Counted from the stretch's first letter, positions 10,701-45,579 are shown. The stretch: DNA of 64,000 bases from Spirochaetia bacterium (GCA_965203055.1 OZ241863.1:2272001-2336000); one strand, 5' to 3'. The notes: generated by a model from the sequence alone, not told the origin. Numbers and translations are program-made.

Positions 10701-11456
10701 ATGAAGCTGCAGGGAAAGTGCGCGCTGGTGACGGGGGGCGCGTCGGGGATCGGCAAGGCGAGCTGTGAGCTGTTCGCCCGCGAGGGCGCCAAGGTGGCGG
10801 TGGTGGACGTGAACGGGCCGGGCGCGGAGGAGACGGCGCACGCCATCGCCGCACGCGGGGGGACTGCGCTGGCGTTGACCGCCGACGTCACCGACGAAGG
10901 GCAGGTGCAGCGCGCGGTGACGCAGGCGGCCGAGCGGTTCGGGCCGATCGACGTACTGCACAACCACGCCGGGCTGCTGCCTCCCAACGACGCCTCGATC
11001 TTCGACATCGACGCCGCCACCATCGATCAGGCGCTGGCGATCAACGTCAAGGGGATGATCCTGGTGGGCAAGCACGTGAGCCGGGTAATGCGCGATGCCG
11101 GGCGCGGCGCCATAGTCAACACCGCCTCCGACCTCTCCTACATCGCCCTGGGCGGGCTCACCACCTACGTCACCTCGAAGAGCGCGATTCCGGGATTGAC
11201 GCGGGTGATGGCCGCCGATCTGGCCGATCACGGCGTGCGCGTCAACGCGGTGGCGCCCGGCTTCGTCTACAGCGGCATGACGGCCGGGTTGCTGGACCAG
11301 CCGGAGGTGCTGGAACCGATGCGGGAAACCTATCTGATCAAGGAGCTGGGCCAGCCGCTCGACGTCGCCAACTGCGTGCTGTTCCTGGCCTCCGACGAGG
11401 CCCGCTTCGTCACCGGCGCGGTGCTCGTGGTCGACGGCGGCCACACCGTCCGCTAG
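10701..11456 (+). CDS. SDR family oxidoreductase
   Basis: TGGASGIG, catalytic YVTSK, VRVNAVAPG and VDGG. Confidence 0.92.
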   Translation: MKLQGKCALVTGGASGIGKASCELFAREGAKVAVVDVNGPGAEETAHAIAARGGTALALTADVTDEGQVQRAVTQAAERFGPIDVLHNHAGLLPPNDASIFDIDAATIDQALAINVKGMILVGKHVSRVMRDAGRGAIVNTASDLSYIALGGLTTYVTSKSAIPGLTRVMAADLADHGVRVNAVAPGFVYSGMTAGLLDQPEVLEPMRETYLIKELGQPLDVANCVLFLASDEARFVTGAVLVVDGGHTVR

Positions 11457-11469
11457 CAGTGTCCGCCGA

Positions 11470-12294: not shown

Positions 12295-12299
12295 CGGCA

Positions 12300-13361
12300 A
12301 TGCAGGCGCTGGTGCTGACCGCCCCCAACCGGTTCTCGGTGACCGAGGTACCGCGCCCCGTACCGGGCCGCGAGGACGTGCTGGTGCGGGTGGATACGAC
12401 CTGCATCTGCGGTACCGATCCGCACATCATCGCCGGCGACTTCCCCGGCTTCTGGCCCAGGTCCTATCCCTTCGTCCCCGGCCACGAGTGGTCCGGCACC
12501 GTGACCGCGGCCGGGGAGGTGGCGGCCGGTCTCGGCTACCGCGCCGGCGACCGCGTGTGCGCCACCTCGCATTGCGGCTGCGGGTTCTGCCGCATGTGCC
12601 TGACCGGTCGCTACAACCTGTGCCTGAACTACGGCAACGAAGCGGTCGGCCACCGCCAGTACGGGCACTACACCGCGGGCGGCTACGCCGAGTACGTGGC
12701 CGCCAGCGTCAAGAGCGTGCACCGCATCCCCGACCAGCTCCCGCTGGCCTGCGCCGCGGCCATCGATCCGCTGTCGATCGCGCTGTACACCGTCAAGCGC
12801 ACGCGCCTGCAGCCGGGCGCCGACCTGGTCATCCTGGGCACCGGCCCGCAGGGCCTGCTGGCGATTCTGTGCGCCGCCGCGCTCGGCGCCGGGCGCATCA
12901 TCGCCGCCGGCAGCGGCGCGCGCCTGCAGCGGGCGCGGGACCTGGGGGCAGTCGGCATCGACTACCGCACGGCAGACGTGGTGGCCGAAGTGCGCCGGCT
13001 CACCGGCGGACTCGGGGCGCCGCACGTGGTGGAGTGCGCCGGCACTGCGGCCGCGTTCCGCCAAGCCTGCGAGCTGGCGGCCAAGGGCGGCGTGATCTCG
13101 GCGATCGGCCTGCCGGCGGAGGACGCCGCGGTACCGGTGCGGCGCCTGGTGCTGGACGAAGTGGAGATCCGCGGCGGGCGCGCCAACCCCAACACCGCCG
13201 CGGAGGCGCTGGCGCTGGTGGTCAACGGGCGCATCGACCTGGCGCCGTTGTTCACCCACCGCTTCGCGCTGCGCGACTTCGCCGAGGCGCTGCGCACCTT
13301 CACCGGCCGGATCGACGGCGCCATCAAGGTGGCGGTCTGCCCCGCGCTCGGCGGCGCTTGA
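12300..13361 (+). CDS. Zn-dependent alcohol/sugar dehydrogenase (MDR family)
   Basis: CICGTDPH, GHEWSG, structural CxxCxxC..C and GTGPQG. Confidence 0.9.
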   Translation: MQALVLTAPNRFSVTEVPRPVPGREDVLVRVDTTCICGTDPHIIAGDFPGFWPRSYPFVPGHEWSGTVTAAGEVAAGLGYRAGDRVCATSHCGCGFCRMCLTGRYNLCLNYGNEAVGHRQYGHYTAGGYAEYVAASVKSVHRIPDQLPLACAAAIDPLSIALYTVKRTRLQPGADLVILGTGPQGLLAILCAAALGAGRIIAAGSGARLQRARDLGAVGIDYRTADVVAEVRRLTGGLGAPHVVECAGTAAAFRQACELAAKGGVISAIGLPAEDAAVPVRRLVLDEVEIRGGRANPNTAAEALALVVNGRIDLAPLFTHRFALRDFAEALRTFTGRIDGAIKVAVCPALGGA

Positions 13362-13400
13362 CCGCGGCGGCCGGGTTCCGTACTTTCCTGCGCTACTGCC

Positions 13401-14453
13401 ATGGCATTCGAATCACGGGTCTACGCACTGCGGATCGAACCGCACCCCAACGCCGACCGCCTGGAACTGGCCGCCATCGGCGGCTTCCGCTGCGTGGTCG
13501 GCAAGGACAGCTTCGTCGACGGCGACCTGGCCGCCTACATCCCGGAAGGCGCCGTCTGCCCCGAGTGGCTGATCACCGAGCTGGGGCTGGAAGGCAAGCT
13601 GGCCGGCAGCAAGAAGAACCGCGTCAAGGCGGTGCAACTGCGCGGCGCGCTGTCGCAGGGTCTGGTGTACCCGGTCCGCGACGGGATGATTCGCGGGCGC
13701 CCGGTCAGCGCCGGCGACGAGGTGACGGAGCTGCTGGAGCTGGTCAAGTACGAGCCGCCGATCCCCATCTCCATGCAGGGCGAGGTGCAGGCGGCGCACG
13801 GCGCGACCATCCACTATGACATCGAGGACTTCAAGAAGTACCCGCAGGAGTTCCGCGACGGGGAACCGGTGATGGTCACCGAGAAGCTGCACGGCACCTG
13901 GTGCTGCCTGGGCTGGCACCCCGACCACGGCCCGATCGTCACCTCCAAGGGCATGTCGGACAAGGGCTTGGCGCTGCGGCTCAACGACGCCAACGAAGGC
14001 AACCTGTACGTGCGCACCTGGGCCGCGCACCGGGAGGCGTTCGAGGCGGCGCGCGCCCGCGTGGCCGGCGGCGGTGAGCCGTGCTACGTCCTGGGGGAGG
14101 TGTATGGGCGCGGCGTGCAGGACCTGCACTACGGCCAACCCAACCCGTCGTTCGCGGTGTTCGATGCCTACGTGGGCGAACCGGGCATGGGCCGCTACCT
14201 GAGCCCGGATGAACTGGCCGAGTCGCTGAGCGATCTGTTTCCGCTGGTGCCGGCGCTCTACCGGGGGCCGTTCAGCCTGGCAAAGCTGCAGGAGCTGACC
14301 GACGGCGCCACTACCCTGGGCGGCGCGCACGTGCGCGAAGGCGTGGTGGTCAGGCCGGCCGCCGAACGGGTGTCGTCCGAGTTCGGGCGGGTGATTCTGA
14401 AGAGCGTCTCCGGCAAGTATCTGACCCGCAAGGGCGGAACCGAGTTCAACTGA
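13401..14453 (+). CDS. ATP-dependent RNA ligase, DRB0094/Rnl5 family
   Basis: N-terminal OB-like HPNADRLE domain, then motif I TEKLHGT, GEVYG, FAVFD, REGVVVR and ILKSVS..YL. Confidence 0.9.
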   Translation: MAFESRVYALRIEPHPNADRLELAAIGGFRCVVGKDSFVDGDLAAYIPEGAVCPEWLITELGLEGKLAGSKKNRVKAVQLRGALSQGLVYPVRDGMIRGRPVSAGDEVTELLELVKYEPPIPISMQGEVQAAHGATIHYDIEDFKKYPQEFRDGEPVMVTEKLHGTWCCLGWHPDHGPIVTSKGMSDKGLALRLNDANEGNLYVRTWAAHREAFEAARARVAGGGEPCYVLGEVYGRGVQDLHYGQPNPSFAVFDAYVGEPGMGRYLSPDELAESLSDLFPLVPALYRGPFSLAKLQELTDGATTLGGAHVREGVVVRPAAERVSSEFGRVILKSVSGKYLTRKGGTEFN

Positions 14454-14514
14454 CCTCCGTTCGCGGCCGGGAGCCCGGCCCCGGCTTCCCCCGGCGGCTG
14501 GCCGGCGGGCGGCT

Positions 14515-14724
14515 TCAGTGCTCGGCTTCCCGGTCCTGCCAGCCCCGCGCCAGGGTTCGCGTCCGGGCGGCGTCGTCCAGTACGCGGGCGCATGACTCCC
14601 AGTCGACGGGGCTGACTTCGCGGTAGCGCAGCTCGAAGGGGTGCTGCCGCGGCCTCGACGAGAATACGTACCGTGGTCCTGGAATCTGCGCGACAATTCC
14701 AGCCGGAGACCAATCCCGAACCAA
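14515..14724 (-). CDS. Possible small hypothetical protein downstream of hipA
   Basis: 69-codon ORF with a TTG start preceded by GAGGAGG; no recognisable domain. Confidence 0.3.
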   Translation of the reverse strand: MVRDWSPAGIVAQIPGPRYVFSSRPRQHPFELRYREVSPVDWESCARVLDDAARTRTLARGWQDREAEH

Positions 14725-14763
14725 CTTTCCTCCTCGCTCGATGAGTCTGACCTGACTTGACGG

Positions 14764-16065
14764 TCAGACGATAAGATCGGTTCGGTGGGCGGCGGCCAGG
14801 CGGCGGGCGGCGGCGGCCGGCACCCCCGCCAGCGCGGCGAACTCGGGCCAGCGCCGCACGGCGTCCCGGACCTGACGGAGGATGTCGGCGGCGCGGCCCC
14901 GACGCATGGCGGCGTTGCGGGCGCAGGCCGCGAAGTCGCCGGCGGCGAAGCCTTCGCGTTTGCCGTTCAGCGACATCTGGTGCGCGCCGGTCCATCGCCC
15001 GGCGGGATTGTAGCTGTAGGTAAGGTCGAACGCCGGCGCCAGCGACCAGCGTCCCGACCGATCCATCAGGAAGGCGATGTTCTTGACGTGATCATCCTGA
15101 TTGCGCGCCACGACATTGAACGCCATGCGCCGAAACTGCTCTTCCACCGCCGGCTTGCCGAGGCCCAGTCGCTGAATCACGCCGAGCGCCTGCTCGTAGG
15201 AGTTTGCGCCGGGTTGATTGAAGTCGTAGTGGGCCAACGCGCCCAGTGACTGCATGTGAATCTTGTCGCCCGCGGGCGTGCGGTCGAACCGGCGGGTCAT
15301 GAAGTGATTGCGCCCGCCCTCGCGCAGGATGCGGCACTCGGCCATGGTGATGCCCGCGGCCTGCGCCATGATGTGATAGGCGTATTCGATCAGCCCATAG
15401 CCCTGCGGATCATCGAGCTCGCGGTCGCGGTTGCCCGCTACGCCGTCGAACTTCAGGAGCCAGTAGGAAAACCCGTCGCCGGCGGCGATCTGCCCGGAGC
15501 GCACCGCGCCGGTGGCGGGGTTCCAGGCGATGATCGCCTTGGCGCGGGCGCCGCCGGCCGACGTGCCCACGCGCAGGATGCTCTGCAGCGCCTGCTGCCG
15601 CTGCGGGGTCCGGAGCGATCCGGTGAGCGCACCGCGGTGGTCGAGTATCTCGCCGGCCAGCTCGACCAGGGCGGCCACCTCCACCGCGGACTGGCGGTAC
15701 TCCGGCCCGGTGGCGGGGACGAACTCCAGCGCCCCCATGCCGCGCACGCCGACGTAGCAGAGCCGTTCCACCGAGTTGAAGTCGCCGGGGATGCGGCCCT
15801 GCGCGGCCAGCCAAGCGTCGATGACGGCATTTCCGAACCGGTCCGGGAGCGAGTCGGCCAGCAGTCCCGGCAGCCCGTGGAACGTCTCCTGCGCCAGTGC
15901 CGGGAAGGAGTAGATGGCAGTGCCCAGAGGCATGGTGAGCGGGGCAACCTGCCGTCCGCTGCGCAGGAACGACGAGTTGTACTCGAAGTTGGCACTGCCG
16001 CGGCCGTCATCCCAGCTCACCGCGCCGATAGTGGTTCCCCACAGTTTCACTTCGGCCACGGTCAT
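14764..16065 (-). CDS. hipA: HipA-family serine/threonine kinase toxin with N-terminal HipA_N domain
   Basis: LADSLPDRFG, SAGGARAKA, WLLKFD, RRFDR, RNQDDHVKN and LAPAFDL. Confidence 0.9.
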   Translation of the reverse strand: MTVAEVKLWGTTIGAVSWDDGRGSANFEYNSSFLRSGRQVAPLTMPLGTAIYSFPALAQETFHGLPGLLADSLPDRFGNAVIDAWLAAQGRIPGDFNSVERLCYVGVRGMGALEFVPATGPEYRQSAVEVAALVELAGEILDHRGALTGSLRTPQRQQALQSILRVGTSAGGARAKAIIAWNPATGAVRSGQIAAGDGFSYWLLKFDGVAGNRDRELDDPQGYGLIEYAYHIMAQAAGITMAECRILREGGRNHFMTRRFDRTPAGDKIHMQSLGALAHYDFNQPGANSYEQALGVIQRLGLGKPAVEEQFRRMAFNVVARNQDDHVKNIAFLMDRSGRWSLAPAFDLTYSYNPAGRWTGAHQMSLNGKREGFAAGDFAACARNAAMRRGRAADILRQVRDAVRRWPEFAALAGVPAAAARRLAAAHRTDLIV

Positions 16066-16418
16066 GGTTCATCGCCCCAGGTCCACGTGCCGGGCGTCTC
16101 GCGGATGACGGTGGTGGCAGGCGACGAAGCGCGCTGGCGCAGCTTGCCGGCCATTCTGAGCTGCTGAATCGGGCTGGGGGCCGGCTCGGGCACGAGCAGG
16201 TCGAGATAGTCGAGCAGCCGGAGGGCGCGCAGGATCCGAATCAGGCTCGAAGCCTGGCACGACTTGCCCTGCTCCAGGCGCTGCACGGTCGGCGCCGACA
16301 CCCCGGCCTCAACGGCGAGCGCCGCCTGGGTAAGGTTGCGGTTCAACCGCTGGCGGGCAAGGCGGTTGCCAAGCTCCTGCATTGCGGCAGTATCGGAGGT
16401 ATGGTGGGTGATCGTCAT
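16062..16418 (-). CDS. hipB: XRE/HipB-type HTH antitoxin
   Basis: RLNRNLTQAALAVEAGVSAPTVQRLEQG helix-turn-helix; overlaps the hipA start by 4 bp. Confidence 0.8.
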   Translation of the reverse strand: MTITHHTSDTAAMQELGNRLARQRLNRNLTQAALAVEAGVSAPTVQRLEQGKSCQASSLIRILRALRLLDYLDLLVPEPAPSPIQQLRMAGKLRQRASSPATTVIRETPGTWTWGDEP

Positions 16419-16532
16419 TATAAGATCCCTGTTTTGATTTCTTACGCGACATTTCGCCAAGCAATCAATCAAATATAGTGGCTTGCAAGGTAATCTCAAA
16501 CCGTGAAATGGTCAACGTCCGATCGGGCGCGT

Positions 16533-16554
16533 TATACATCTAATTTGATGTATA
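16533..16554. promoter_or_regulatory. Palindromic operator candidate upstream of hipBA
   Basis: TATACATC-taattt-GATGTATA, a perfect 8-bp inverted repeat in an AT-rich intergenic region. Confidence 0.55.
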
Positions 16555-16683
16555 TTGCCTAATTTCAGCCATTGCACATCACCTTCGATTAGTTAATTGG
16601 AGATCGGCGCCGGGCAGGCGAGCTGCCGCCGGCGGCGCCAGGCCCGGCGCCGCCGGCGTCCTGCCCGGCGCCGCGCTTGGCGT

Positions 16684-17841
16684 TTACTCGTCGTCTCCGG
16701 TCAGGATCTCGAGGTACTCGTGGTAGGCGTAGGCGCGGCCGCGGCGGTTGCCGGTGATCTCGCGCAGTACGCCCAGGCTCTCGAGCAGGGCGATCGCCTT
16801 GCGAGTCGGAGGCGGGGTGAGGTCGAGCAGCTCGCACGCCCGGGGAACGGTCACCACCGGGCTGGCCGGAAGGCACTCCAGCAGCCGGATGGCGGCAACG
16901 GTCGGGCGGTCGTGGGCGATGATGCGGCGGCGGTGGCGCTCGACCAGGGCATACAGTTCCCGCGCGGCGCGGACGCCGTCGTCGGCCGCCTCGCGCACGC
17001 ATGCCAGAAAGAATGCGGTCCAGCCCTCCCAGTCGCCGCCGGTGCGCACCGCGTCCAGCCGCGCGTAGTATTCCGCCTGGGCGCGGCGGAACGCCAGGCT
17101 GAGGTAGAGCAGCGGCTGGTCGAGCAACCGCCAATGCTCGATGAGCAGCGCGATCAGCAGCCGGCCAATGCGGCCGTTGCCGTCCAGGAACGGGTGGATC
17201 GTCTCGAACTGCACGTGCGCGAGTCCAGCGCGCACCAACGGCGGCAAACCGCAATCGGCGTGCCACCAGCGCTCCAGCGCCGCCAGCGCGTCCGGCACCT
17301 CTTCCGGCGGCGGAGGTACGAACCGGGCGTTGCCGGGCCGGCTGCCGCCGATCCAGTTCTGCGAGCGGCGCAGCTCGCCCGGCTGCTTGTCCGCGCCGCG
17401 CGCTCCGCTCATGAGGAGGCGGTGCGCGTCGCGCAGCAGGCGGATGCTGAGCGGCAGGCCGTTCGGGTCGGCGAGCTGCTCGCGGGCGTAGGTGAGGGCT
17501 GCCACGTAGTTGACGACCTCCTGCACGTCGTCAGGGCGGTCGGCGCGAGCGGTCCTCTCGTAGGTAACGGCGTCCCGGAGCGTGGCCTGCGTCCCCTCGA
17601 TCCGCGAAGTGACGACCGCCTCCTTCCGCACGAACCCGTAGAGGAACCAGTCGGTGTCCGGCACCATCGCGCCCGCAACCGCCAGGCGGGACAGCGCGTG
17701 CTGCGCGCCGGCGTGGAGCTCCGCCATCGGCCCGTCCAGCGCCAGGGGAGGCTCCCGCGGCGGCAGCGGGCAGGGAACGAACGCGCGAACCTGCTCTCCC
17801 AGGGTGCTGGTGATGCGGTATCGACCGGTTCGGCGCTCCAC
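16684..17841 (-). CDS. Fic-family protein, class II (N-terminal autoinhibitory helix, C-terminal HTH)
   Basis: Fic motif HPFLDGNGRIGR, inhibitory TSRIEG, and GELRRSQNWIG. Confidence 0.92.
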   Translation of the reverse strand: MERRTGRYRITSTLGEQVRAFVPCPLPPREPPLALDGPMAELHAGAQHALSRLAVAGAMVPDTDWFLYGFVRKEAVVTSRIEGTQATLRDAVTYERTARADRPDDVQEVVNYVAALTYAREQLADPNGLPLSIRLLRDAHRLLMSGARGADKQPGELRRSQNWIGGSRPGNARFVPPPPEEVPDALAALERWWHADCGLPPLVRAGLAHVQFETIHPFLDGNGRIGRLLIALLIEHWRLLDQPLLYLSLAFRRAQAEYYARLDAVRTGGDWEGWTAFFLACVREAADDGVRAARELYALVERHRRRIIAHDRPTVAAIRLLECLPASPVVTVPRACELLDLTPPPTRKAIALLESLGVLREITGNRRGRAYAYHEYLEILTGDDE

Positions 17842-17858
17842 GCTGAGTATCTATAAGC

Positions 17859-17899
17859 AACGATCGTTTCTTTATCAAGGAGGATAAGAAACAATCGTT
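17859..17899. promoter_or_regulatory. Imperfect inverted repeat immediately upstream of fic
   Basis: AACGATCGTTTCTTTATC (17859-17876) and GATAAGAAACAATCGTT (17883-17899). Confidence 0.5.
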
Positions 17900-33882: not shown

Positions 33883-34884
33883 TCAGCCGCGGCAGGCCAC
33901 TATCGGCAGGTCCTTCATCGCGTAGAGGCCGGGCGCCGCGGCCACCAGCGCCGGCGCGCTGTTGACGACGATGGCCGCGGTCGCGGTGTCGCCGGGGGTG
34001 CCTCCGGGGATGGTCGCCTCCAGATCGGGGGTGCCGGTAATGGCCACCGAATCGTGGGAACTCGGCGCGCCGACGTAGGCTTGGAACTCCAGCTCCACCA
34101 CCGGGCGCCCGGCGCATGACCCCACCGCGGACTGCTTCAAGCCGGCGACGCGGCCCACCGGCACCGCGGCGTGGGCGCTGCTCACCGCGCGATCCAGCAG
34201 CACCGGTTCGATCGACTCGCTGAAGTCGTCCAACTTCCAGCCGAATCCGGCCGCCAGCAGCGCCGCGGACTGCTCCAGGCCGACGTGGCCGAAGCCGCCG
34301 CCGGCCACCGCCGCGGCGAACTCCCGAGGCGACATGCCTACCCCGATCTTGCGCTGAAACGGCCCCCGCCGGGCGGCCGCGTCCTGCACCCGGGTCACGC
34401 GCACCGCGCGCACCTCGGCGCACACCGCCGACATGAACAGCGGCCAGGTATCCATCAGAAAGCCGGGGTTGACCCCGGTGCCGAGAATCGACACCCGGTG
34501 GCGGCGCGCCAGCTCCTGCAGCCGCGCCGCGGCCTCCGGGTCGCGGCCGCCGGGAAAGGCCAGCTCCTCGCAGGTGGACACCACGTTGGCCCCGGCGGCG
34601 GCGATCGCCGCAAGCTGATCGAACACCGCCGCCACCTGCGAACCGGTAGCATGAAACACCACCGCCGGGCGCAGCTCGCGCAGCGCCGCCGCGGCGTCGC
34701 CGCGCACCGTAACGCCGAGGCGGCCTCCCAGCCCCGCCACCTCGCCCAGATCGCGGCCCACCACCGCCGGGTCGACGTCGATCCCGCCCAGAACCGTGAA
34801 CTCCGGCCGCTGCGCCGCCAGACGCACGATGCTGCGCCCGATGGGACCGCAGCCAAACTGCACCACGCCAATCGTTCCTGCCAT
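33883..34884 (-). CDS. Dihydrodipicolinate-reductase-like / 2,4-diaminopentanoate dehydrogenase family protein
   Basis: GCGPIG, NVVSTCEEL, LGTGVNPGF and PGDTATAAIVVN. Confidence 0.8.
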   Translation of the reverse strand: MAGTIGVVQFGCGPIGRSIVRLAAQRPEFTVLGGIDVDPAVVGRDLGEVAGLGGRLGVTVRGDAAAALRELRPAVVFHATGSQVAAVFDQLAAIAAAGANVVSTCEELAFPGGRDPEAAARLQELARRHRVSILGTGVNPGFLMDTWPLFMSAVCAEVRAVRVTRVQDAAARRGPFQRKIGVGMSPREFAAAVAGGGFGHVGLEQSAALLAAGFGWKLDDFSESIEPVLLDRAVSSAHAAVPVGRVAGLKQSAVGSCAGRPVVELEFQAYVGAPSSHDSVAITGTPDLEATIPGGTPGDTATAAIVVNSAPALVAAAPGLYAMKDLPIVACRG

Positions 34885-34986
34885 GCGGCGCCCAGCATAG
34901 CAGGCTCCGCGCCGGCGTTGCACCGCCCCGGCCCGCGCCGTACCATGGCGGCCACCGATGAGCGCTACCCTTGCGGGAGGCCGGGC

Positions 34987-35757
34987 GTGAGCCGCCGGGC
35001 GCTGGTCATCCAGCACATTGCGGTGGAGACCCTGGGCGCCAACTTCGGCGCGGTGCTGGCCGAAGCGGGCTTCGAGACGATCCCGCTACTGGCGGCGGGC
35101 GCCGATAGTGATAGCGCGGGCCGGTTCGCCGCGCCGGAGCTGGCGGAGCTGGAGCTGATCGTCTCGCTGGGCGGCCCGCAGTCGGCCAATGACCGGACCC
35201 CGGCGCTGCAGCAGGAGATCGAATACCTGCGCGCGGCCGCCGCCGGGCAGCCGCCGGTGCCGGTGGTAGGAGTGTGTCTCGGCGCCCAACTGCTGGCCCG
35301 CGCGCTCGGCGGCCAAGTAGCGCCCACCGGCGGCTACCAGTTCGGGCTGCGCAAGATCGACGTGACCGCGGCGGGCGCCGTCGACCCGGCGTTCCGGGAA
35401 GTCGCCGTGCCGCTGGTGCCGACGCTGCACGGCGAGCGGTTCTCGGTGCCGCCGGGGGCCGCACTGCTGGCGACTGGCACCATGCTGCGGCGCGACGGGA
35501 GCTACGTCCGCATCCCCATGGCGTTCCGCTATGGCCTCAGCTACGGCTTCCAGTTCGAGCCGCAACTGACCTGCGCCGAGTTGCGCGTCTGGAACCGCGA
35601 GCTGGCCGGCGACTACGCGCTCATGGGCGAACGCTTCGACCCGCGCGAGGAGGCCGCCCGCAACCTGCGCGAGTTCACCGCATTCGCACCGTACCACGAA
35701 CGCCAGATGGCCCGCCTGCTCCGCGCCATCCTGCGCCAGGCAAACTACAACCGATGA
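34987..35757 (+). CDS. Class I glutamine amidotransferase-like protein with non-canonical triad
   Basis: IQHIAVETLG, LGGPQSAN, GVCLGAQLLA, and FQFEPQ where FQFHPE is expected. GGGAGG precedes GTG 34987. Confidence 0.75.
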   Translation: MSRRALVIQHIAVETLGANFGAVLAEAGFETIPLLAAGADSDSAGRFAAPELAELELIVSLGGPQSANDRTPALQQEIEYLRAAAAGQPPVPVVGVCLGAQLLARALGGQVAPTGGYQFGLRKIDVTAAGAVDPAFREVAVPLVPTLHGERFSVPPGAALLATGTMLRRDGSYVRIPMAFRYGLSYGFQFEPQLTCAELRVWNRELAGDYALMGERFDPREEAARNLREFTAFAPYHERQMARLLRAILRQANYNR

Positions 35758-35776
35758 CCATGCAGAAACAAAGACG

Positions 35777-38700
35777 ATGAACGGAGCCGATACTGTGGAA
35801 GGAGGAGAACACGTCAGGTTGAGAGGGAATCCCGGACGACACGGAATGACAACTGGCAAGACCCAAACCGTTGGAAGCTTTCTGATGGTCGAGGTCGCCT
35901 TCGGACCCAACGAACGGCAATTCAAGCGGTATGACTTGCTGGAACCTGTCGAGCCCGAAGAGGACATGCTGGACCTTCTCGCTACGGGTCGATGCGGCGG
36001 TCCGATCGATCTCCGGCGCGTATTGACGCTGGCGAAAGTCAAGGGCGACCTCACGAATGTGTTCTATTCGATGGAGGCCAGCAATACTGACTTCTATCCG
36101 CACCAATTCAAACCAGTTCTGAAGTTTATCGAGTCGACTGTAGGGCGGCTACTCATCGCCGACGAGGTTGGTCTGGGCAAGACGATTGAGTCAATCTACA
36201 TCTGGAAAGAGCTGCAGGCACGGGAAGACGCACGACGACTGCTCATTATAGTCCCTGCAATGCTGAGGCAAAAATGGCGAGACGATTTGCAACAGCGCTT
36301 TGGTATCTCAGCTGAAATCATCCGCGCCAAGGAATTGGTTGATAAGGTCGAAAGTTTTTCACAGCGACGACTCATCAATCATACATTTACATTGATCACC
36401 AGCCTTGAAGGATTGCGAACTCCAAGAGACTTTCATGATGAAGACAACACTAGCCCTCGGGCCGTGTTCGGCCGCCTCATGGATCGAAACACAGCGACCG
36501 ATGATCTTGCGTTGTTCGATCTCACAATTATCGATGAAGCGCATTATTTGAGGAATCCACAGACGGCAAGCAATCGTCTGGGTCGATTGGTGCGCGATGC
36601 ATCGCGTAACCTTGTGCTGCTGACTGCCACACCAATCCAGATCAAGACCGGAAATCTCTATCAGCTGCTTCGCCTGGTAGATGAGGAACAGTTTTTCCAG
36701 GATGGCTTGTTCGAAGATATGCTGCAAGCCAATGCACCCATTATTCGTGCGCTCCGATCGATTTGGCGTATCCCTCCGGAAATAGAAAACGCTCGAGAAG
36801 GTATAGCGGATGCGCTCGCTAACCGCTACTTTGCCAATGACCCGATCCTCGGCAGAGCAGCTGAAAAAATATCGGACGCCACTGACGATCCAGCGGCACG
36901 GGTTGAACTTGGAAGACTGCTCGAATCCCGGTCTCTTCTTGGCCAGTACATGACCCGCAGTCGAAAACGGGAGGTCCTCAAGCGGCGAGTCGAGCGCGCC
37001 GCGCAGGTGTTACACGTGTCCTTTAGTTCTCAGGAACGGTCGGTATATAACACAATAACACGGAAGATCCGCGAACGCATGGCCGAAACAGAGGGAATGG
37101 CGACGTTCGCACTGTGCACGCGCCAACGACAGATGGCAAGCTGCCTGGTTGCGGCGCTTGAGCGTTGGCGCGAATGGGATCTGATAGAGGAAGTAATGTC
37201 GGAGGATATAGGATCATCGTTTCGACAAGAAAACACTCATATGGATCAAGAAGACGCTCATATAGATAACGAATTACTGAGCGAAGAGATCCTCGCTGAC
37301 ATAGATATCAGGGATTTGGAGAGGGTTGATTCCAAATACCTACGGCTGCGTGAATTCTTGCGCAACGAGTTGTCGGAGCGTCCGGCAGATAAGATAGTGA
37401 TGTTCTCATTTTTCCGCGGTACACTGGCATATTTGCAGAAGCGGTTGGAGCAAGATGGCTTGCAGACGGCTCTGATCATGGGAGGTATGGGAGACGAAAA
37501 GCAGAACGTACTGCGACGGTTTGCGTCGTCTAGTGGACCATCGATCTTGTTGTCGTCGGAAATCGGCAGTGAAGGAATCGACCTTCAGTTTTGTCGTCTT
37601 GTAGTGAACTACGACTTGCCGTGGAACCCCATGAAAGTCGAGCAGCGTATCGGCCGCTTGGATCGTCTTGGGCAGACGGCGGATAAGATATCGATCGTCA
37701 ACTTGGCGCTGCAGGACACGATAGAAGACAAGATCCTGTTGCGGCTATATGACCGGATTGATCTTTTTAGGGATAGCATCGGAGATCTCGAAGAGATTCT
37801 AGGGGAGATCACAGAGCAACTCATGGTCAAGCTGTTGGCGCCGGACCTTAGCGATGAGCAGAGGGACAGATTGGCGCGGGAAAGTGAGCTTGCCATCGTC
37901 AACAAACGTAAGGAACAGGAGCGGCTTGAGAGTGAAGCGGTCAATCTCATTGGATTCACGGATCATATACTTGATAGCGTCACGGAGACTCACGCGCAGC
38001 GTCGGTGGATCAGCGGGGGCGAGCTTATGGCGTTGGTGGATGACTTCTTTGCACGTCATTATCCCGGCACGCAGATCAGTCGCCTTTCTGGTGACCTAAT
38101 GGCGGCAAGAGTGGACCTTTCTATCGAGGCTCGTGCTGATCTTGCCGCCTTTATCAGTGCCTCGCGGCCGGTGGAACCGACCGGGTTGCACAGGCGAGTA
38201 TCAACTTGCCTTTTTGACCCGCGTCGACCAGGAATCGGCACCCGTATCGAGCGAGTCGACGCGACCCATCCGCTAATTCAATGGATATGTAGTAGGCTGG
38301 AAAGTAGTGCCATATACCGGGTATCGGCGGTCGATCTTTGCCGCCTCAGGACAAGCGTCGGTCCCGGGAAGTACACGTTCGCAGTACATAGATGGGAGTT
38401 TACGGGTTTGCGTGCGCGACGTGTGCTGAGCTTCAGAGCCGCCGATTTGGCACGTAGCCATGTGCTGGATGCGGAATTGTCTGAGGGACTGGTGGTAGCT
38501 GCGTCAAGGTACGGAGCGATGTTGACCAATGTGGAGCATGCCATTGGTGATCTCGACGTGATGGCGGCTGTAGAACGCTGTGAAGAATCGCTCTACAGTG
38601 AGTACGAGCAGTTTGTGCATGATTTCGAAGCCGAGAATGAACTGCGGTGTAATACTCAGGAAATGAGCGCACGGAGATTCTCAGATCGAAGAATCCGTGA

Positions 38701-38881
38701 ACTTGAAGATCGGCTGCGGCGATTTAGAGACAACGATCAGGCGCACCTGATACCGATGACAGAAGGCTTGTTACGGAGAGAGAGAGTACAACTTGAAGCG
38801 AAGCTCCGGAAGGTGAAGGAACGGCGCAATACCGACCCGACGGTGGAGCCGTTGGCCGTCGGCATTATCAGGGTCAGGTAA
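35777..38881 (+). CDS. SNF2/RapA-like helicase (1034 aa)
   Basis: PHQ Q-motif, ADEVGLGKT, DEAH, LTATP, SEGIDLQ and YDLPWNPMKVEQRIGRLDR. Visibly lower GC than the flanks. Confidence 0.9.
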   Translation: MNGADTVEGGEHVRLRGNPGRHGMTTGKTQTVGSFLMVEVAFGPNERQFKRYDLLEPVEPEEDMLDLLATGRCGGPIDLRRVLTLAKVKGDLTNVFYSMEASNTDFYPHQFKPVLKFIESTVGRLLIADEVGLGKTIESIYIWKELQAREDARRLLIIVPAMLRQKWRDDLQQRFGISAEIIRAKELVDKVESFSQRRLINHTFTLITSLEGLRTPRDFHDEDNTSPRAVFGRLMDRNTATDDLALFDLTIIDEAHYLRNPQTASNRLGRLVRDASRNLVLLTATPIQIKTGNLYQLLRLVDEEQFFQDGLFEDMLQANAPIIRALRSIWRIPPEIENAREGIADALANRYFANDPILGRAAEKISDATDDPAARVELGRLLESRSLLGQYMTRSRKREVLKRRVERAAQVLHVSFSSQERSVYNTITRKIRERMAETEGMATFALCTRQRQMASCLVAALERWREWDLIEEVMSEDIGSSFRQENTHMDQEDAHIDNELLSEEILADIDIRDLERVDSKYLRLREFLRNELSERPADKIVMFSFFRGTLAYLQKRLEQDGLQTALIMGGMGDEKQNVLRRFASSSGPSILLSSEIGSEGIDLQFCRLVVNYDLPWNPMKVEQRIGRLDRLGQTADKISIVNLALQDTIEDKILLRLYDRIDLFRDSIGDLEEILGEITEQLMVKLLAPDLSDEQRDRLARESELAIVNKRKEQERLESEAVNLIGFTDHILDSVTETHAQRRWISGGELMALVDDFFARHYPGTQISRLSGDLMAARVDLSIEARADLAAFISASRPVEPTGLHRRVSTCLFDPRRPGIGTRIERVDATHPLIQWICSRLESSAIYRVSAVDLCRLRTSVGPGKYTFAVHRWEFTGLRARRVLSFRAADLARSHVLDAELSEGLVVAASRYGAMLTNVEHAIGDLDVMAAVERCEESLYSEYEQFVHDFEAENELRCNTQEMSARRFSDRRIRELEDRLRRFRDNDQAHLIPMTEGLLRRERVQLEAKLRKVKERRNTDPTVEPLAVGIIRVR

Positions 38882-38882
38882 C

Positions 38883-40178
38883 GTGCGTATGAACCGCCCG
38901 GAACGACGTCGAAGACGTTTTCGTGTAGAGCCGTTGCATGTCAATCTTGGTATTGACTTTGGTACAAGCTACACCAAGGTCTGTTATCGAGATGTCGGTT
39001 CTGATAAGTCCGGTGTCCTTACCTTCGAAGGTGGACCATACTTACCTTCGATTGTGCTCATTGGTGAAAATGGCACGCTAAGCACCCCATTAGCCAATAA
39101 CGGTCGAAGTTCGACGGAAGTAGCATTTCTGAAGATGCGGATAGGTGAATACACTAATTCGCAAGATTCTATGTTCGTACAGGCGTTGTCCAGCTACTAT
39201 CTTGCCGAAATCATTCGTGGTGCAATGGACAGATTCAGGATTCAGGAGTCCGAATTGTCTGATCGACGACAGATTAGATGGTCGGCCAATATTGGAGTTC
39301 CGGTAGACCACTATGACTCACCAAAGTTAGTGATATTCAGAAAGGTATTCGCGATAGCGTGGATGTGGGCGGTATCGAACGGTGTCCCTACTACAGTCCA
39401 AGGTGCGATCGAACAATATCAGATTGGGGAAGGAGAGGTGAACCTGGCAGCCACGGATTGTCATGCAGTACCGGAGATCGTTGCGGCGGTATGGTCGTTC
39501 GTTACATCGCGTGCAGCACGGCCCGGAATATACACCTATTTCGACATCGGTGGAGGTACTCTTGATGGCGTCTGCTTCGGGTACGAGAACAGCAAAGGAG
39601 CTCGCCTTATTCGCTGTTACTCGGGCAAGGTGGCTCCGTTAGGCGTCAGTTTGCTTACGCATGGTCTGCGCCGTCCCGGGGGCGGGAACATTGAGAGAAT
39701 GCTCACTGCAGATTCGCTTCCATCGGCCTACATCCTTAATCATCTTGCGAAATACGAGAACCAAATTAGGACGCTTGTTGCAGAGATCGTCATGACTGCT
39801 AAGTGCAAGATTTGGGGAGGATTCAGGGGGATTTACCTGGAAGATAGTGTGGATCTACTTCCCATCTTTCTTGGAGGTGGAGGATCTCGTTCCGCGTGGT
39901 ACCAATTGGTCATTAAGAGTACCTACGGAAGTCGTCAGCTCGACAGAGCCGGGATCCCTCGCTTCGATCTGAAGGAGGTTCCTAAGCCGCCCGACCTAGA
40001 GATGAACAGCCTTTCTGATGACAATATTTTTTCGCGGTTTACTATTTCCTATGGTCTTTCCGTGCCAGCCGGCGAGACGCCGAATTTCTTCTTACCTGGT
40101 GGCGCTTATCCAATCCCGCCTAGTCAGAAGCCGAACGATATCCCTCCGTTCGAAACACACAAAGATTTGTACGAATAG
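38883..40178 (+). CDS. Hsp70/actin-fold (ASKHA) ATPase without a substrate-binding domain
   Basis: Phosphate-1 LGIDFGTSYTK, connect-1 VPEIVAA, phosphate-2 FDIGGGTLD and adenosine FLGGGGS motifs. Confidence 0.75.
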   Translation: MRMNRPERRRRRFRVEPLHVNLGIDFGTSYTKVCYRDVGSDKSGVLTFEGGPYLPSIVLIGENGTLSTPLANNGRSSTEVAFLKMRIGEYTNSQDSMFVQALSSYYLAEIIRGAMDRFRIQESELSDRRQIRWSANIGVPVDHYDSPKLVIFRKVFAIAWMWAVSNGVPTTVQGAIEQYQIGEGEVNLAATDCHAVPEIVAAVWSFVTSRAARPGIYTYFDIGGGTLDGVCFGYENSKGARLIRCYSGKVAPLGVSLLTHGLRRPGGGNIERMLTADSLPSAYILNHLAKYENQIRTLVAEIVMTAKCKIWGGFRGIYLEDSVDLLPIFLGGGGSRSAWYQLVIKSTYGSRQLDRAGIPRFDLKEVPKPPDLEMNSLSDDNIFSRFTISYGLSVPAGETPNFFLPGGAYPIPPSQKPNDIPPFETHKDLYE

Positions 40179-40567
40179 CTGCGGCGATGTATCGCTACAT
40201 GCGCGGAGACAAGCAAGCGCATCGTCCGGCTACTGTCCGAGCGTTGAGTTGCATTTTGGTTACGGCCCCGTGTCCTGCCACCGTGGACCCAAAGGGGAAC
40301 GCATCGAGTCCAAAGCGCACGGCGCAGATGATCGACAGGACGGGCGGCGTTTGGCCAAGACCAAACGGTGCGGCTTGTTTACGGCGACCTGCACCGGGAA
40401 TGGTGGATCGGGGACATGCGTCTGCCGTACCTACGCTCGGCTCCTCATGCGCTGATCGTACCTACAGTCGAGCCGTGGCTGCCTACGGACCACTCAAGGA
40501 TGGAATCATCCTGTACGGGCTCGCGAGGGTATTGACCAGCGCCGCGCGCTAGGCGACGGTTGGGGTC

Positions 40568-42217
40568 ATGGAACGCGTCGCGCCCCGTTCGCCCGTCCTG
40601 CTCAGCGCCGAGCAGGTCCGCCAGTTCATCGCCGACGGCTATCTCGTGCTGCAGCCGTCGTTGCCGGCCAACCTGCACCGCGCCATCTGCCGGCGGCTTG
40701 CGGCGGCGATTCCGGCGGACGACAATCCCGGCAACAACATCCTGCCGCTGGTGCCGGAGATGCGCCACGTGCTGGAGGCGCCGGAAGTGCGCGGCGCCCT
40801 GCTCAGCCTGCTCGGTCCCGGCTACTTCGAGCATCCGCACCGCTATTGCCACATCGAAGCGCCGCAGTCCTCCGACGGCCTCGACTACCCCGCCAAGCTG
40901 GCCGCCAACAGCCACCAGGACGCCTACACGCCGCTCGACCGCCCGCGCCACCACCTGCTCCGCTACCTGCGGCTCATGTACTACCCGCAGGACACGCCGC
41001 AGGAGCTGGGCCCGACTCACGTCATTCCCGGCACTCAATTCAACGCCGGGCTGAACGACGCCGAGCGCGCGCGGCCGCTGCCGGTGCGCGGCGGCGCCGG
41101 CACGGTGAGTCTGACCCACTTCGACGTGGGACATGCCGCCGGGGTCAACTTCGGCGCGCAACGGCGCTTCATGGTGAAGTTCATCTTCATGCGCGCCGCG
41201 GCGCCGCAGGCCAACGGCTGGGCGGGGCCGGAGTGGGCCTGGACCCGCCCGGAGCAGAGCGCCGCGCCGGAGCGGCTGGAGCTCGCCTGGGCGCACCTCT
41301 GGGACTGGCTGCGCGGCGCGGAGCGGTACGCCAGCCTGAAGTCCGGAGCGCTGACCAACGGCGCGCAGGCCGATGTTGCCGGCCTGAGCGTGGCCGAGCT
41401 GAGCGCGCGTCTGGCCGCCGAGGCCGACAGTGCCTCGCGGATAGCGGCCGCGCATGCCCTGGCCGCCCGCGGCGCCGCGGCCGAGACGGCGGTACCGGCC
41501 CTGACCGCGGCCCTCAACCGCGATCCCGACCCGGTGCGCGTCGCCGCGACCTACGCTCTCGGAGCGATCGGCGCGCCGGCGGTGGAGCCGCTGGCCGCCC
41601 TGCTGCGCGGCTCCGGCGCCGCCCTGCCCCACCTGCTGCGCGGGTTCGGCCGCCGCAACTCCGGCGCGCTGCTCATGGACGACGCCGGATACGCGCTGGC
41701 GGCGGTCGGCGCGCCGGCGCTTCCGGCCCTGGTCGAGTTGCTGCGGGACGACAGCGAGTGGGCGCGCGTCAACGCCGCCTTCGCCCTCGGCGAGATGGAC
41801 GCCGCCGCCCGGGACGCGGTGCCCGCGCTGGTGGACGCGCTGGAGGATGAATCGCAGTACGTAGTGCGCGCCGCCGCGGACGCGCTGGGGGCGGTGGGCG
41901 CTGCCGAGGCCGCGGCTTCCCTCGGCGCCCTGCTGCACGCCGAACGTCCCGGCTGGGACGCGGTCCAGCAGCGCGGCTGGTGCATCCGCGACCAGGTGCG
42001 GGTCAACGCGGCCACCGCGCTCGCGCGCCTCGGACCGGGCGCCGCCGCCGCCGAGGCCGACCTGATCGCCGCGCTCGACGACCCCTGCGGCCAGGTTACG
42101 ACCTTCGTGCTGACCGCGCTGCGCCGCCTCGGCACGCCCGCGGCCATGGACGCCGCCCTCGCCATGCTCAACGCCCAACGCTGGGACCCCTCCCTCAATG
42201 CCCCCCACCGCTTCTGA
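40568..42217 (+). CDS. PhyH-like Fe(II)/2-oxoglutarate dioxygenase fused to HEAT/PBS repeats
   Basis: QVRQFIADGYL, HQD, YYPQD..GPT..IPGT and distal His (GHAAG), followed by repeated AVPAL..AL..D..VR..AA.ALG units. Confidence 0.82.
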   Translation: MERVAPRSPVLLSAEQVRQFIADGYLVLQPSLPANLHRAICRRLAAAIPADDNPGNNILPLVPEMRHVLEAPEVRGALLSLLGPGYFEHPHRYCHIEAPQSSDGLDYPAKLAANSHQDAYTPLDRPRHHLLRYLRLMYYPQDTPQELGPTHVIPGTQFNAGLNDAERARPLPVRGGAGTVSLTHFDVGHAAGVNFGAQRRFMVKFIFMRAAAPQANGWAGPEWAWTRPEQSAAPERLELAWAHLWDWLRGAERYASLKSGALTNGAQADVAGLSVAELSARLAAEADSASRIAAAHALAARGAAAETAVPALTAALNRDPDPVRVAATYALGAIGAPAVEPLAALLRGSGAALPHLLRGFGRRNSGALLMDDAGYALAAVGAPALPALVELLRDDSEWARVNAAFALGEMDAAARDAVPALVDALEDESQYVVRAAADALGAVGAAEAAASLGALLHAERPGWDAVQQRGWCIRDQVRVNAATALARLGPGAAAAEADLIAALDDPCGQVTTFVLTALRRLGTPAAMDAALAMLNAQRWDPSLNAPHRF

Positions 42218-42266
42218 CCGGAGCCGGGCCCCTTACGCCGCAGTTATGGTTTTTTGGCGTCGGCAG

Positions 42267-42295
42267 TTGACGAAAATTGCATGGAAGTGTATCCT
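42267..42295 (+). promoter_or_regulatory. Sigma70-type promoter candidate
   Basis: TTGACG-17 nt-TATCCT in an AT-rich patch. Confidence 0.45.
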
Positions 42296-42405
42296 CTCCT
42301 TCATTACTACCCATCAAGTTCGCCCCTCGATATTTGCAAGGGGTTCAGGCGGCTTGATCAATACCACCCCAGGGACGCCCTTGTGGCGTCCCTGCATTTT
42401 GCACC

Positions 42406-42475
42406 ATGGACCTGCCCACTTCCGAGCACCGTGTCCGCGTACGAGTATTCGTCGACTTCTGGAACTTCCAAGCAA
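42406..42475 (+). pseudogene. N-terminal remnant of a NYN-domain gene
   Basis: RVRVFVDFWNFQ matches the first strand of NYN/LabA nucleases (hFhDxxN); the rest of the domain is absent. Confidence 0.4.
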
Positions 42476-42525
42476 TGCTGTCTTCCAATTTGCTGCTATG
42501 TGCGGTATCATCGGCGGAGGTGCAA

Positions 42526-42792
42526 ATGAAAATAAAACCATGGAAACAAGCGACTGAGGATGCAATTGTCCGTATCTGTCGTAGAACAGGTACGAAGATA
42601 TTCGACTTCAGTAGCCTTGTCAGGCAAGAGCTACCCCAGATTGTCAAGGAGACCCAGACAAAAGGAAAGACACCGGAAAAGTCGCTATCGAAGTATCTGC
42701 AGGACTTGAAAGGAAGGAAAATAGAGTTTGTCGATCATCAAGGCACGTACAAGTTGATAGACGATGATCTCGTGGCGAGATGTTCCAGATGA
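42526..42792 (+). CDS. Small winged-helix protein resembling domains attached to restriction/HNH nucleases
   Basis: GGAGG RBS; KGKTPEKSLSKYLQDL..IEFVD..GTYKL pattern. Confidence 0.45.
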   Translation: MKIKPWKQATEDAIVRICRRTGTKIFDFSSLVRQELPQIVKETQTKGKTPEKSLSKYLQDLKGRKIEFVDHQGTYKLIDDDLVARCSR

Positions 42793-42949
42793 GCCTCAGG
42801 TGATGGGCCGGGCCGCTGGTGTGGATTCTTTATGATGAGGCGCTACTTCCCGCAGCCGATTATGGCGTGCCGCATACGCGGGGTAGACGGGCGGCGGGGC
42901 AGCGTGTAAGGTGATCTAACCAACCGGACCACCTCACCTCAGGTAGCGG

Positions 42950-43080
42950 CCGGAACGGCCGGCGGTAGCTTTCGACATTGAGTTCGAAGATGGTCGCGCG
43001 ATGCACCAGCCGATCGACCGCCGACCGGGTCATGGTGGGTCGGGGAAGATGGTGTCCCACTTGCCGAACGGCGCGCCCGC
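42950..43080 (-). pseudogene. IS21-family istB C-terminal remnant (copy 1)
   Basis: AVDRLVHRATIFELNVESYRR. Confidence 0.75.
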
Positions 43081-44987: not shown

Positions 44988-45215
44988 ATGAATCTTACGC
45001 TTTCACTGGACGACAAGGTGGTGGCCGAGGCTCGAAAGTCGGCCGCGGCACTCGGGTTGAGTCTCAATCAGGCGGTGCGGGATTACTTGACAAGCCTCGC
45101 GGGCCGAAGCTCCGCCGACGATGAAATCGCCGAAGTCCGACGCCTCTCCGAGCTGGCGTGCGGCGACCGCGCCGGCTGGCGCTTCGACCGCGACGAGCTG
45201 CATCAGCGTGCGTAG
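44988..45215 (+). CDS. RHH-type antitoxin (VapB/DUF6364-like)
   Basis: MNLTLSLDDKVV..AR..A...GLSLNQAVRDYL and terminal FDRDELH; overlaps the PIN gene start. Confidence 0.8.
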   Translation: MNLTLSLDDKVVAEARKSAAALGLSLNQAVRDYLTSLAGRSSADDEIAEVRRLSELACGDRAGWRFDRDELHQRA

Positions 45216-45579
45216 CTTCCTGGACAGCAACGTGCTGGCCTACACCGACGATGCCGGCGACAGAGCGAAGCAAGCGAAGGCGTTGGAGCTGTACCAGACC
45301 TGCCGCAGCAGCGGCAGCGGCGTGATCTCGATGCAGGTCCTGCAAGAGTATTTCGTGACCGCGACTCGCAAGCTCGGTGTGGCCACCGCAGTGGCGAGGC
45401 GCAAAGTGGAGCTGTTCGCGAAGATGGATGTCGTGATTCCGCAGACCGAAGACATCCTGGCGGCCATCGATCTGGTGCGCCTGCACTCGGTGTCGTTCTG
45501 GGACGCACTGATTGTGCGCGCCGCGCAGGTGTCACGATGTTCGGTACTCTACTCGGATGTAGCGCGACAATCAGGATGA
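45208..45579 (+). pseudogene. vapC: PIN-domain VapC toxin, C-terminally truncated by the IS21 end at 45558
   Basis: FLDSNVLAY, QVLQEYF and SFWDALIV. The expected LYSED is broken as TAC TCG GA|TGT. Confidence 0.8.

Follow-up and report, generated by a model that had tools for sequence, protein, structure and literature searches.

The subject of this analysis is a two-gene island in the genome of a Spirochaetia bacterium (GCA_965203055.1 OZ241863.1:2272001-2336000). The window is this whole stretch of 64,000 nucleotides, with positions counted from its first letter, and the island contains two genes only, both on the same strand. These encode a SNF2 ATPase (P0001) and an Hsp70-like ATPase of the ASKHA superfamily (P0002), and there is little doubt that they represent a conserved and mobile SNF2-ASKHA pair. 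The features of the island and its flanks, with the evidence used to define each, are as follows:

35742..40525, no strand: inserted island of 4784 nt, which takes the place of the final codons in the GATase-domain gene upstream (contiguous flanks in relatives, contigs of read runs, composition)
35777..38881, + strand: P0001, a RapA/DrmD-like SNF2 ATPase of 1034 amino acids (aa) (Pfam, PADLOC, NCBIfam, motifs)
35777..36091, + strand: N-terminal non-motor domain of P0001, approximately residues 1-105 (kept in motor-less partners)
36074..37846, + strand: SNF2 motor core, approximately residues 100-690 (Pfam and motif positions)
37844..38878, + strand: C-terminal domain of P0001, residues 690-1034, RapA-like (AlphaFold2 (AF2) model, Foldseek)
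38883..40178, + strand: P0002, a 431-aa ASKHA ATPase of an unnamed family that resembles an Hsp70 nucleotide-binding domain (NBD) (AF2 fold, invariant motifs)
40179..40525, no strand: non-coding island tail of 347 nt, GC 0.61 (Rfam and Pfam scans without a match)
34171..35757, + strand: left flank, host GATase-domain gene with its 3' end altered by the insertion (Pfam GATase, empty-site alignment)
40568..42217, + strand: right flank, host HEAT-repeat gene (Pfam HEAT_2, 1.5e-25; adjoins the GATase gene in relatives)

The stop codon of P0001 (TAA) ends at 38881 and, after a single base, the P0002 open reading frame (ORF) starts with a GTG at 38883 and runs to 40178. An alternative start is provided by an ATG in the same frame, two codons downstream of the GTG. 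An initial annotation, made from the sequence, had described a 1034-aa SNF2 protein followed after 1 bp by a 431-aa protein, and these coordinates were confirmed. The GC content of the island was 0.53 as compared to 0.70 for the rest of the window, and was the lowest of all 4.8-kb stretches in the 64-kb window. Values along the window were 0.50-0.56 within the island versus 0.70-0.78 beyond its borders, and GC at third codon positions (GC3) was 0.575 for the P0001 gene and 0.507 for the P0002 gene, as compared to 0.84-0.93 for four neighbouring host genes (ADH, OMP, GATase, and HEAT). The abrupt change in composition first noticed after the GATase gene was therefore seen as a drop in both GC and GC3. 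An Rfam search of the island tail and its surroundings returned nothing at E ≤ 0.1, a 121-aa ORF in the tail (40187-40552) had no Pfam match, and scans for promoter- and terminator-like sites gave no excess over shuffled sequence.

Empty sites were identified by a DNA search of 30 relatives. In three genomes of the same genus (G010, G003, and G004) the left and right flanks are directly adjacent, and the alignment is interrupted just before the end of the GATase-domain gene, within its final codons, and approximately 40 nt upstream of the HEAT-repeat gene. Contigs from two public runs belonging to two studies (X4 and X5) also joined position 35741 to 40526 through a spacer of 28 other letters, and further contigs of the same runs carried the island (a presence/absence polymorphism); the sides of these joints are short (30 and 27 letters) and are used as corroboration only. 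At the protein level, the 23 other genomes from the family of the host were all without a P0002 homolog (1 of 24 when the window's own genome is counted), and 5 of 401 sampled genomes of the phylum had one, the window's own again included. The pair thus reached this genome as a 4.8-kb insertion. Horizontal acquisition, as had been proposed, follows from the empty sites in the three genomes and the two runs together with the absence of the gene from the 23 family genomes.

No integrase was found in the island, and the sole repeat at its borders, the 7-nt CATCCTG at 35727 and 40507, is not interpretable as a target-site duplication. The pair was also carried by two small cyanobacterial plasmids, where the annotation of its genes reads "hypothetical protein" and "SNF2-related". 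One of these plasmids has it next to type I-D cas1/cas2 and transposases, and on the other (pCHL69-1) it is surrounded by toxin-antitoxin genes, XerD, and ParA. The pair had no match in 50,697 phage records and none in a pattern-based scan of IMG/VR contigs.

In order to obtain reference loci, one genome per species was scanned with the ASKHA alignment, which yielded 69 loci from Alpha- and Gammaproteobacteria, Cyanobacteria, Spirochaetes, Acidobacteria, Verrucomicrobia, Synergistetes, and others. A P0001 homolog was adjacent on the same strand in 58 of these. The SNF2 gene came first in 42 loci and the ASKHA gene in 16, all of the latter cyanobacterial, and the intergenic gap in 54 ORF pairs was mostly between -7 and +50 nt. 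All flank ORFs from the 69 loci were clustered; no third conserved family rose above a handful of loci, and the remaining large clusters were antisense shadows of the two genes. Distances among P0001 homologs and among P0002 homologs were strongly correlated (Pearson r 0.96, 496 pairs, 32 loci), a value reached by none of 999 label permutations; it is inflated by the shared ancestry of the loci and supports co-inheritance without proving interaction. Evolutionarily, the two genes form an obligate pair. Their linkage, the lack of a third family, and their co-divergence uphold the two-component reading of the initial annotation.

Linkage was also determined in reverse by scanning metagenome contigs with generic SNF2 motifs. 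An ASKHA gene lay downstream of all six strong-scoring SNF2 genes of the clade for which downstream DNA was available (L093, L095, L096, L098, L099, and L107), and four more distant SNF2 genes were followed by a divergent ASKHA protein of approximately 600 aa. The homolog neighbourhoods, which the initial annotation had suggested comparing, accordingly agree in both directions, with the pair linked in 58 of 69 loci and 6 of 6 reverse-test genes. A sister SNF2 clade was observed in the same contigs at 11 metagenome loci (L113, L114, L119, L121, L125, L127-L130, L133, and L140), where a shared family of approximately 1,000-1,100 aa was found downstream instead. Sister-clade SNF2 proteins scored approximately 530-570 bits on the hidden Markov model (HMM) of the pair clade, and the four scanned with PADLOC scored 376-389 on its model PDLC02623. 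Four of five scanned partners had no PADLOC match at E ≤ 1e-60 and the fifth had a partial TmtA match; this family may be another unnamed SNF2 partner.

A full SNF2 gene was missing from 11 of the 69 loci. Four of these are contig ends (L019, L042, L057, and L066), two are decayed (L021 and L050), one is a true solo ASKHA gene (L025), and four have a short partner. The short partners, all cyanobacterial (L043, L047, L048, and L056), are intact genes of 741, 489, 470, and 515 aa located just upstream of the ASKHA gene. Their similarity to the SNF2 profile was limited to the N-terminal domain (HMM positions 3-89), a piece of lobe 1, and the C-terminal domain; none of the five SNF2 ATPase motifs was present, and the C-terminal ELID..HPL..WI motif was retained.

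P0001 matched SNF2-rel_dom (PF00176; 7.5e-27, 94.6 bits) and Helicase_C (PF00271; 3.4e-19, 69.6 bits) in Pfam, and its motor motifs were located at residues 132 (GLGKT), 253 (DEAH), 283 (TATP), and 623 (QRIGRLDRLGQ). ATPase motifs I, II, III, and VI were invariant in 32 homologs, which places P0001 in the SNF2 family as first annotated. The best description by profile was the PADLOC "DrmD" model PDLC02623, matched end to end (residues 10-1019) with 912.6 bits. The NCBIfam DrmD model NF038317 was aligned over positions 8-994 of 1021 at 409.4 bits, below its cutoff of 610, and the NCBIfam RapA model NF003426 was matched in the motor region only, at 165.1 bits against a cutoff of 576. P0001 had no Pfam RapA Tudor or RapA_C match, and its N-terminal domain had no Pfam match. 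The likeness to both DrmD and ZorD that had been proposed was thus retained in part: DrmD is a full-length paralog, although its equivalog cutoff was missed, whereas ZorD (PADLOC) gave a weak match of 58 bits confined to the motor region.

The C-terminal third of P0001 (residues 690-1034) was modelled with AF2 from 32 homologs, with a predicted local distance difference test score (pLDDT) of 84.0. The model consists of a long helix, an alpha/beta subdomain, and a helical hairpin. Foldseek, which had been suggested for this region at the outset, returned only four chains at E ≤ 0.001, all E. coli RapA (8spg, 8so8, 6bog, and 8t0l; E 1.4e-6 to 1.7e-5). These were aligned over 309-330 columns with low TM-scores of 0.24-0.27, indicating that the arrangement of domains differs. 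A profile of the SNF2 C-terminus found nothing below E 0.08 among PDB sequences, and a wide VIA-align search with the model returned helical hairpins only (Z ≤ 9.2), barely probing the alpha/beta subdomain. No nuclease fold was found in these searches of the C-terminal model, in which the alpha/beta subdomain was not searched alone.

P0002 had no match at E ≤ 0.1 in Pfam (PF00012 included), PADLOC, or NCBIfam, and its best E value against PDB sequences was 0.24, which is not meaningful. A word-indexed search collected 270 family proteins at E ≤ 1e-3, nearly all unnamed. An exhaustive search of 50%-identity clusters returned 431 at E ≤ 1e-30, 1834 at 1e-10, and 2546 at 1e-3, and in the ESM Atlas unnamed clusters led, with an "Hsp70 family" cluster first appearing at rank 23. 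Three glycine-rich motifs (D25, G27, T28, T31, and K32; D221, G223, G225, and D228; and G331-G334) were invariant in 30 aligned homologs. K84 and E198, which we take to be the counterparts of the Hsp70 catalytic residues, were likewise invariant.

The AF2 model of P0002 (pLDDT 83.2; predicted TM-score, pTM, 0.82) has an ASKHA fold, with two RNase-H-like lobes. Its top structural matches were Hsp110 and Hsp70 NBDs (Z 25.0-25.9; root-mean-square deviation 3.1-3.9 Å over 290-313 residues), followed by MreB (Z 21.7), PilM and FtsA (approximately 20), and actin and Arps (approximately 18), and Foldseek matched DnaK with E 3e-12. P0002 was therefore assigned, on the strength of its predicted structure, to the ASKHA superfamily with an NBD of the Hsp70/Hsp110 type. 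The initial annotation had recognised the ASKHA motifs by eye; the reading had no support in profile libraries, yet the fold, the structural matches, and the invariant motifs all confirmed it. It had also reported that a peptide-binding domain was missing, and P0002 does end with the NBD: at 431 aa it is without a substrate-binding domain or lid, and the fold matches cover residues 15-412 and NBDs only. P0002 thus resembles the NBDs of DnaK, Sse1, Ssz1, and BiP as best fold match and in its invariant phosphate-1, phosphate-2, and adenosine motifs. It differs from Hsp70 in the domains it has lost and in leaving PF00012 unmatched, and no J-domain or GrpE partner was found among the scanned neighbours.

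Some ASKHA proteins of the family carry additional regions. The cyanobacterial members (P0174, P0167, ORFs of L023-L040, and NZ_CP046159.1 14040-16274) have N-terminal extensions of 300-1000 aa that consist of a hydrophobic segment and then many near-identical coiled-coil repeats of approximately 45 residues. Pfam matches to these extensions were to coiled coils only and all below threshold; one of the long proteins was annotated by PGAP at 744 aa. Their size suggested that P0174 (1454 aa) and P0167 (1115 aa) were SNF2-ASKHA fusions, and this was rejected because BLASTP showed no SNF2 part in either and the N-terminus was repetitive coiled coil. Two distant relatives, P0232 (718 aa) and P0259 (629 aa), have a C-terminal extension with a zinc-ribbon-like motif (CxCGG...DCExCGGWG) and a conserved terminal domain (NNR..GGG.WVYC ... 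HYP.GR..RSGEQ).

The genes next to the pair in the window are the GATase-domain and HEAT-repeat genes, and neither the island nor its flanks contain a methylase/methyltransferase or nuclease, as had first been noted. In order to describe the neighbourhood of other copies, 222 ORFs (within 5 kb and at least 130 aa) from 30 diverse loci were compared to PADLOC at E ≤ 1e-25. One or more matches were found in the flanks of 19 of the 30 loci, a raw count without a background rate that is suggestive and not a statistic. Flank matches by locus (PADLOC) included the following:

L022, L041: CBASS
L041: DrmC/B/A
L053: complete DISARM and DRT surrounding the pair
L046: SspH/SspA
L058: type III restriction enzyme
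L062: type II methylase, Orf5/HEC-06, and type IV enzyme
L069: second SNF2 and type IIG enzyme
L008: HmaB
L002: type III methylase and giant helicase

A further companion was PDC-S68, a PADLOC candidate represented by proteins of approximately 1,220-1,250 aa with an SF1 RecD-like domain and end-to-end matches to the model. It was adjacent to the pair in 11 loci (7 confirmed by PADLOC and 4 by clustering only), on the same strand in 10 and on the opposite strand in 1. Same-strand copies were downstream in L002, L006-L009, L012, L015, and L017 and upstream in L058 and L064; the opposite-strand copy, in L010, is half-length. PDC-S68 is a separate candidate in its own right, and the pair occurs in the window without it; none was found in the window or its genome. 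In L002 (Rhizobium etli), the first half of a 2150-aa ORF downstream of the pair (11416-17868) matches PDC-S68 and the second half an HKD+Snf2-type model (C3a139), and the corresponding stretch in L006 and L007 is split into two ORFs.

Taken together, we consider the pair to be a self-contained, horizontally mobile two-gene module of a SNF2 dsDNA translocase (P0001) and an Hsp70-NBD-like ATPase (P0002) that is probably an undescribed defence system, with a rough probability of 0.55. A role in defence, which is somewhat favoured, is suggested by the gene neighbourhood and by no other line of evidence. Our confidence in any specific mechanism is low. P0001 and P0002 may form a complex through the N- and C-terminal non-motor domains of the SNF2 protein; docking of the ASKHA protein on these domains is proposed because the motor-less partners keep precisely those domains beside the ASKHA gene. 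By analogy, the ASKHA subunit would serve as a nucleotide-gated sensor or switch. Once the complex encounters foreign DNA, or the machinery that replicates or transcribes it, the SNF2 motor could translocate and strip or stall the complexes found there, in the manner of RapA on RNA polymerase. This would protect the cell against phages or plasmids and require no nuclease within the module; alternatively, in loci that also encode a helicase, e.g., PDC-S68, the unit might pass its substrate on to that enzyme. In some lineages a third part, the SF1 helicase PDC-S68, would have been added, and in others the motor would have been lost.

A more specific version of this proposal is held tentatively. 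Here the pair would be a stand-alone anti-phage or anti-plasmid system in which an Hsp70-NBD-like ATPase docks on the non-motor N- and C-terminal domains of a RapA-like SNF2 translocase and gates it, and replication or transcription complexes of the invader are removed in an ATP-driven manner, with no DNA cleavage. The unit of ASKHA protein and scaffold would be the ancestral functional core, since motor-less cyanobacterial variants exist, and the system would be a bacterial counterpart of eukaryotic chromatin remodellers that combine SNF2 with an actin-fold subunit. INO80, SWR1, and SWI/SNF-RSC place an actin-fold, ATPase-like subunit on the non-motor part of a SNF2 motor, and Arp4, Arp7/9, and Arp8 are in the P0002 fold list at Z 16-19. 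P0002 is nearer to the Hsp70 NBD than to actin, however, and the comparison is an analogy that gives no support to common descent of the partnership.

Several observations weigh against the defence proposal. The copy in the window sits among ordinary host genes, outside any defence island, and 11 of the 30 sampled loci (L010, L011, L013, L016, L017, L029, L032, L045, L049, L052, and L065) had no PADLOC match in their flanks. Several of the matches that were found are partial or generic, e.g., IscS-like DndA/SspA and HEAT-ARM, and related loci are not independent (L002, L006, and L007 are close kin). No nuclease, toxin, methylase, or other effector was detectable in the pair, and the SNF2 C-terminus resembles RapA only. 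The switch role suggested for the ASKHA subunit comes from analogy. In terms of sequence profiles the tie of P0002 to Hsp70 is weak: alignment to the host DnaK NBD with hhalign gave a probability of 31% over the phosphate-1 region only.

Some of these observations would be expected if the pair had a function other than defence and was merely carried on mobile DNA. P0001 would then recycle stalled RNA polymerase or other nucleoprotein complexes as RapA does, with P0002 as a chaperone-like ATPase, and the benefit would be in stress or fitness and not in immunity. The C-terminal domain that matches RapA structures only, the partner fold closest to the Hsp70 NBD, the lack of a nuclease, and the position of the window copy among housekeeping genes fit this explanation. 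P0001, whose motor core is similar to that of E. coli RapA, falls far below the RapA cutoff (165 vs 576 bits) and is without the Pfam RapA-specific domains. It is also mobile, paired with an ATPase, and extremely patchy in distribution, with presence/absence polymorphism, and defence genes are frequent neighbours of the pair. We regard a non-defence function as unlikely.

The pair could also be inactive alone and boost or regulate neighbouring DISARM, PDC-S68, or restriction systems in trans, in the way of BrxHII, DrmD, and ArmA. Such an accessory module would account for the full-length paralogy to DrmD (positions 8-994 of 1021), the copies located next to DrmA/B/C (L041) and within a DISARM locus (L053), the PDC-S68 genes adjacent in 11 loci, and the want of an effector domain in the pair itself. 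The insertion in the window, on the other hand, brought two genes only, the nearest DrmA-model match is approximately 280 kb away, the host genome has no PDC-S68, and the 69 loci share no third conserved family. This explanation is accordingly judged improbable as well.

A remnant of a larger system had been offered as an alternative in the initial annotation, and the PADLOC name "DrmD" for P0001 (912 bits) would point to an orphan class 1 DISARM, with a leftover DrmD and a passenger gene. This was contradicted at several levels. The empty sites show that the pair alone was inserted, most homologous loci are without DISARM parts, and DrmA, DrmB, DrmC, and DrmMI are all absent next to the pair in the window, where the PADLOC DrmD model is matched and the NCBIfam DrmD cutoff is missed (409 vs 610). 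DUF1998/MZB matches in the host genome are all more than 250 kb from the island. The best DrmA-model match there (L074, G000:C1:2588169-2591438) is a 1151-aa ORF approximately 280 kb off that aligned to positions 11-1037 of 1043 of PDLC02572 with 523 bits; four DUF1998/MZB ORFs and more than 10 SNF2-like ORFs make up a rich helicase complement in this genome.

In an Acidobacteria metagenome-assembled genome (L053, 875-20327), a complete class 1 DISARM (DrmB, DrmA, DrmMI, and DrmD; minus strand) is split between DrmA and DrmMI by the SNF2-ASKHA pair (plus strand) and a UG19 reverse transcriptase, such that defence systems are nested. The DrmD of this DISARM belongs to another clade, scoring 1026 bits on PDLC02621 and 140 on PDLC02623, as compared to 188 and 912 for P0001. 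For 10 of 10 pair-linked SNF2 proteins from different phyla, PDLC02623 was the sole model matched at E ≤ 1e-90 (533-1030 bits), and among the sampled proteins this model therefore marks the ASKHA-linked clade and not DISARM. P0001 shares the whole-length architecture of DISARM class 1 DrmD and both occur in defence islands, but its partner is an ASKHA ATPase and not DrmMI, DrmA, DrmB, or DrmC, and the clades are separate. The pair is distinct from DISARM, and the remnant explanation is very improbable.

Equally hard to credit is a role in plasmid or island maintenance with the ASKHA protein as a ParM/Alp-like segregation filament and SNF2 as its DNA-handling partner. In its favour, P0002 also matches ParM, Alp, and MreB (Z 16-22), the pair occurs on two small plasmids, and the N-termini of cyanobacterial members are long coiled coils. 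Against it, the matches to Hsp70/Hsp110 NBDs are clearly stronger (Z 25-26), most copies are chromosomal, pCHL69-1 already has ParA, and no centromere-like repeats were seen.

The two-gene module favoured here as a defence system was also compared to published systems. ARMADA consists of the SNF2 protein ArmA, the methyltransferase ArmB, the YprA helicase-nuclease ArmC, and the UvrD protein ArmD (PMC13463889; 10.1101/2025.09.15.676423). According to the available portions of the same sources, ARMADA and BREX BrxHII are similar to the pair in using a RapA-like SNF2 as one anti-phage subunit. The pair differs from ARMADA as described there in being without a PglX-like methyltransferase, a YprA/DUF1998 helicase, and a UvrD helicase, and was not assigned to it. 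In the available text of these two papers the term Hsp70 was absent, as was ASKHA from the latter, and neither they nor the available text of a study of domain-centric discovery (PMC13069673) linked SNF2 to an Hsp70-like/ASKHA partner. The CoCoNuT paper, in the portion available, mentions both domains in separate contexts with no link (PMC11090510).

No published paper was found that mentions PDC-S68. Similarly, none was found that describes or names the SNF2-ASKHA/Hsp70-like pair, and supplements might list such operons as untested candidates. The statement in the initial annotation that the pair matched no named system holds true after literature and profile searches, with the PADLOC "DrmD" label corresponding to the ASKHA-linked clade.

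DISARM, BREX, Dpd, Zorya, and ARMADA all make use of SNF2 motors, whose role there is poorly understood. As a SNF2 system the pair is minimal, since the motor has one partner only, a member of an unnamed family, and experiments on it would not be confounded by a nuclease or methylase. If the defence role is true, the pair would offer a simple model for what SNF2 contributes to immunity, and an Hsp70-like ATPase would join the immune components. The result also identifies a problem for annotation, in that PDLC02623 labels the ASKHA-linked clade as DISARM.

Outside the island, a second low-GC patch (0.53-0.56) was observed at window positions 42100-43000, just beyond the HEAT gene. Beside it are a YhgA-like transposase (PF04754; 43109-44254, - strand) and a PIN-domain ORF (45121-45579, + strand). 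Part of the patch (approximately 42473-42800) was found again in the host genome at G000 1893464-1893650 with 89-90% identity, and an element of approximately 40 nt at 42961-43001 is present in multiple copies in the host genome and its relatives.

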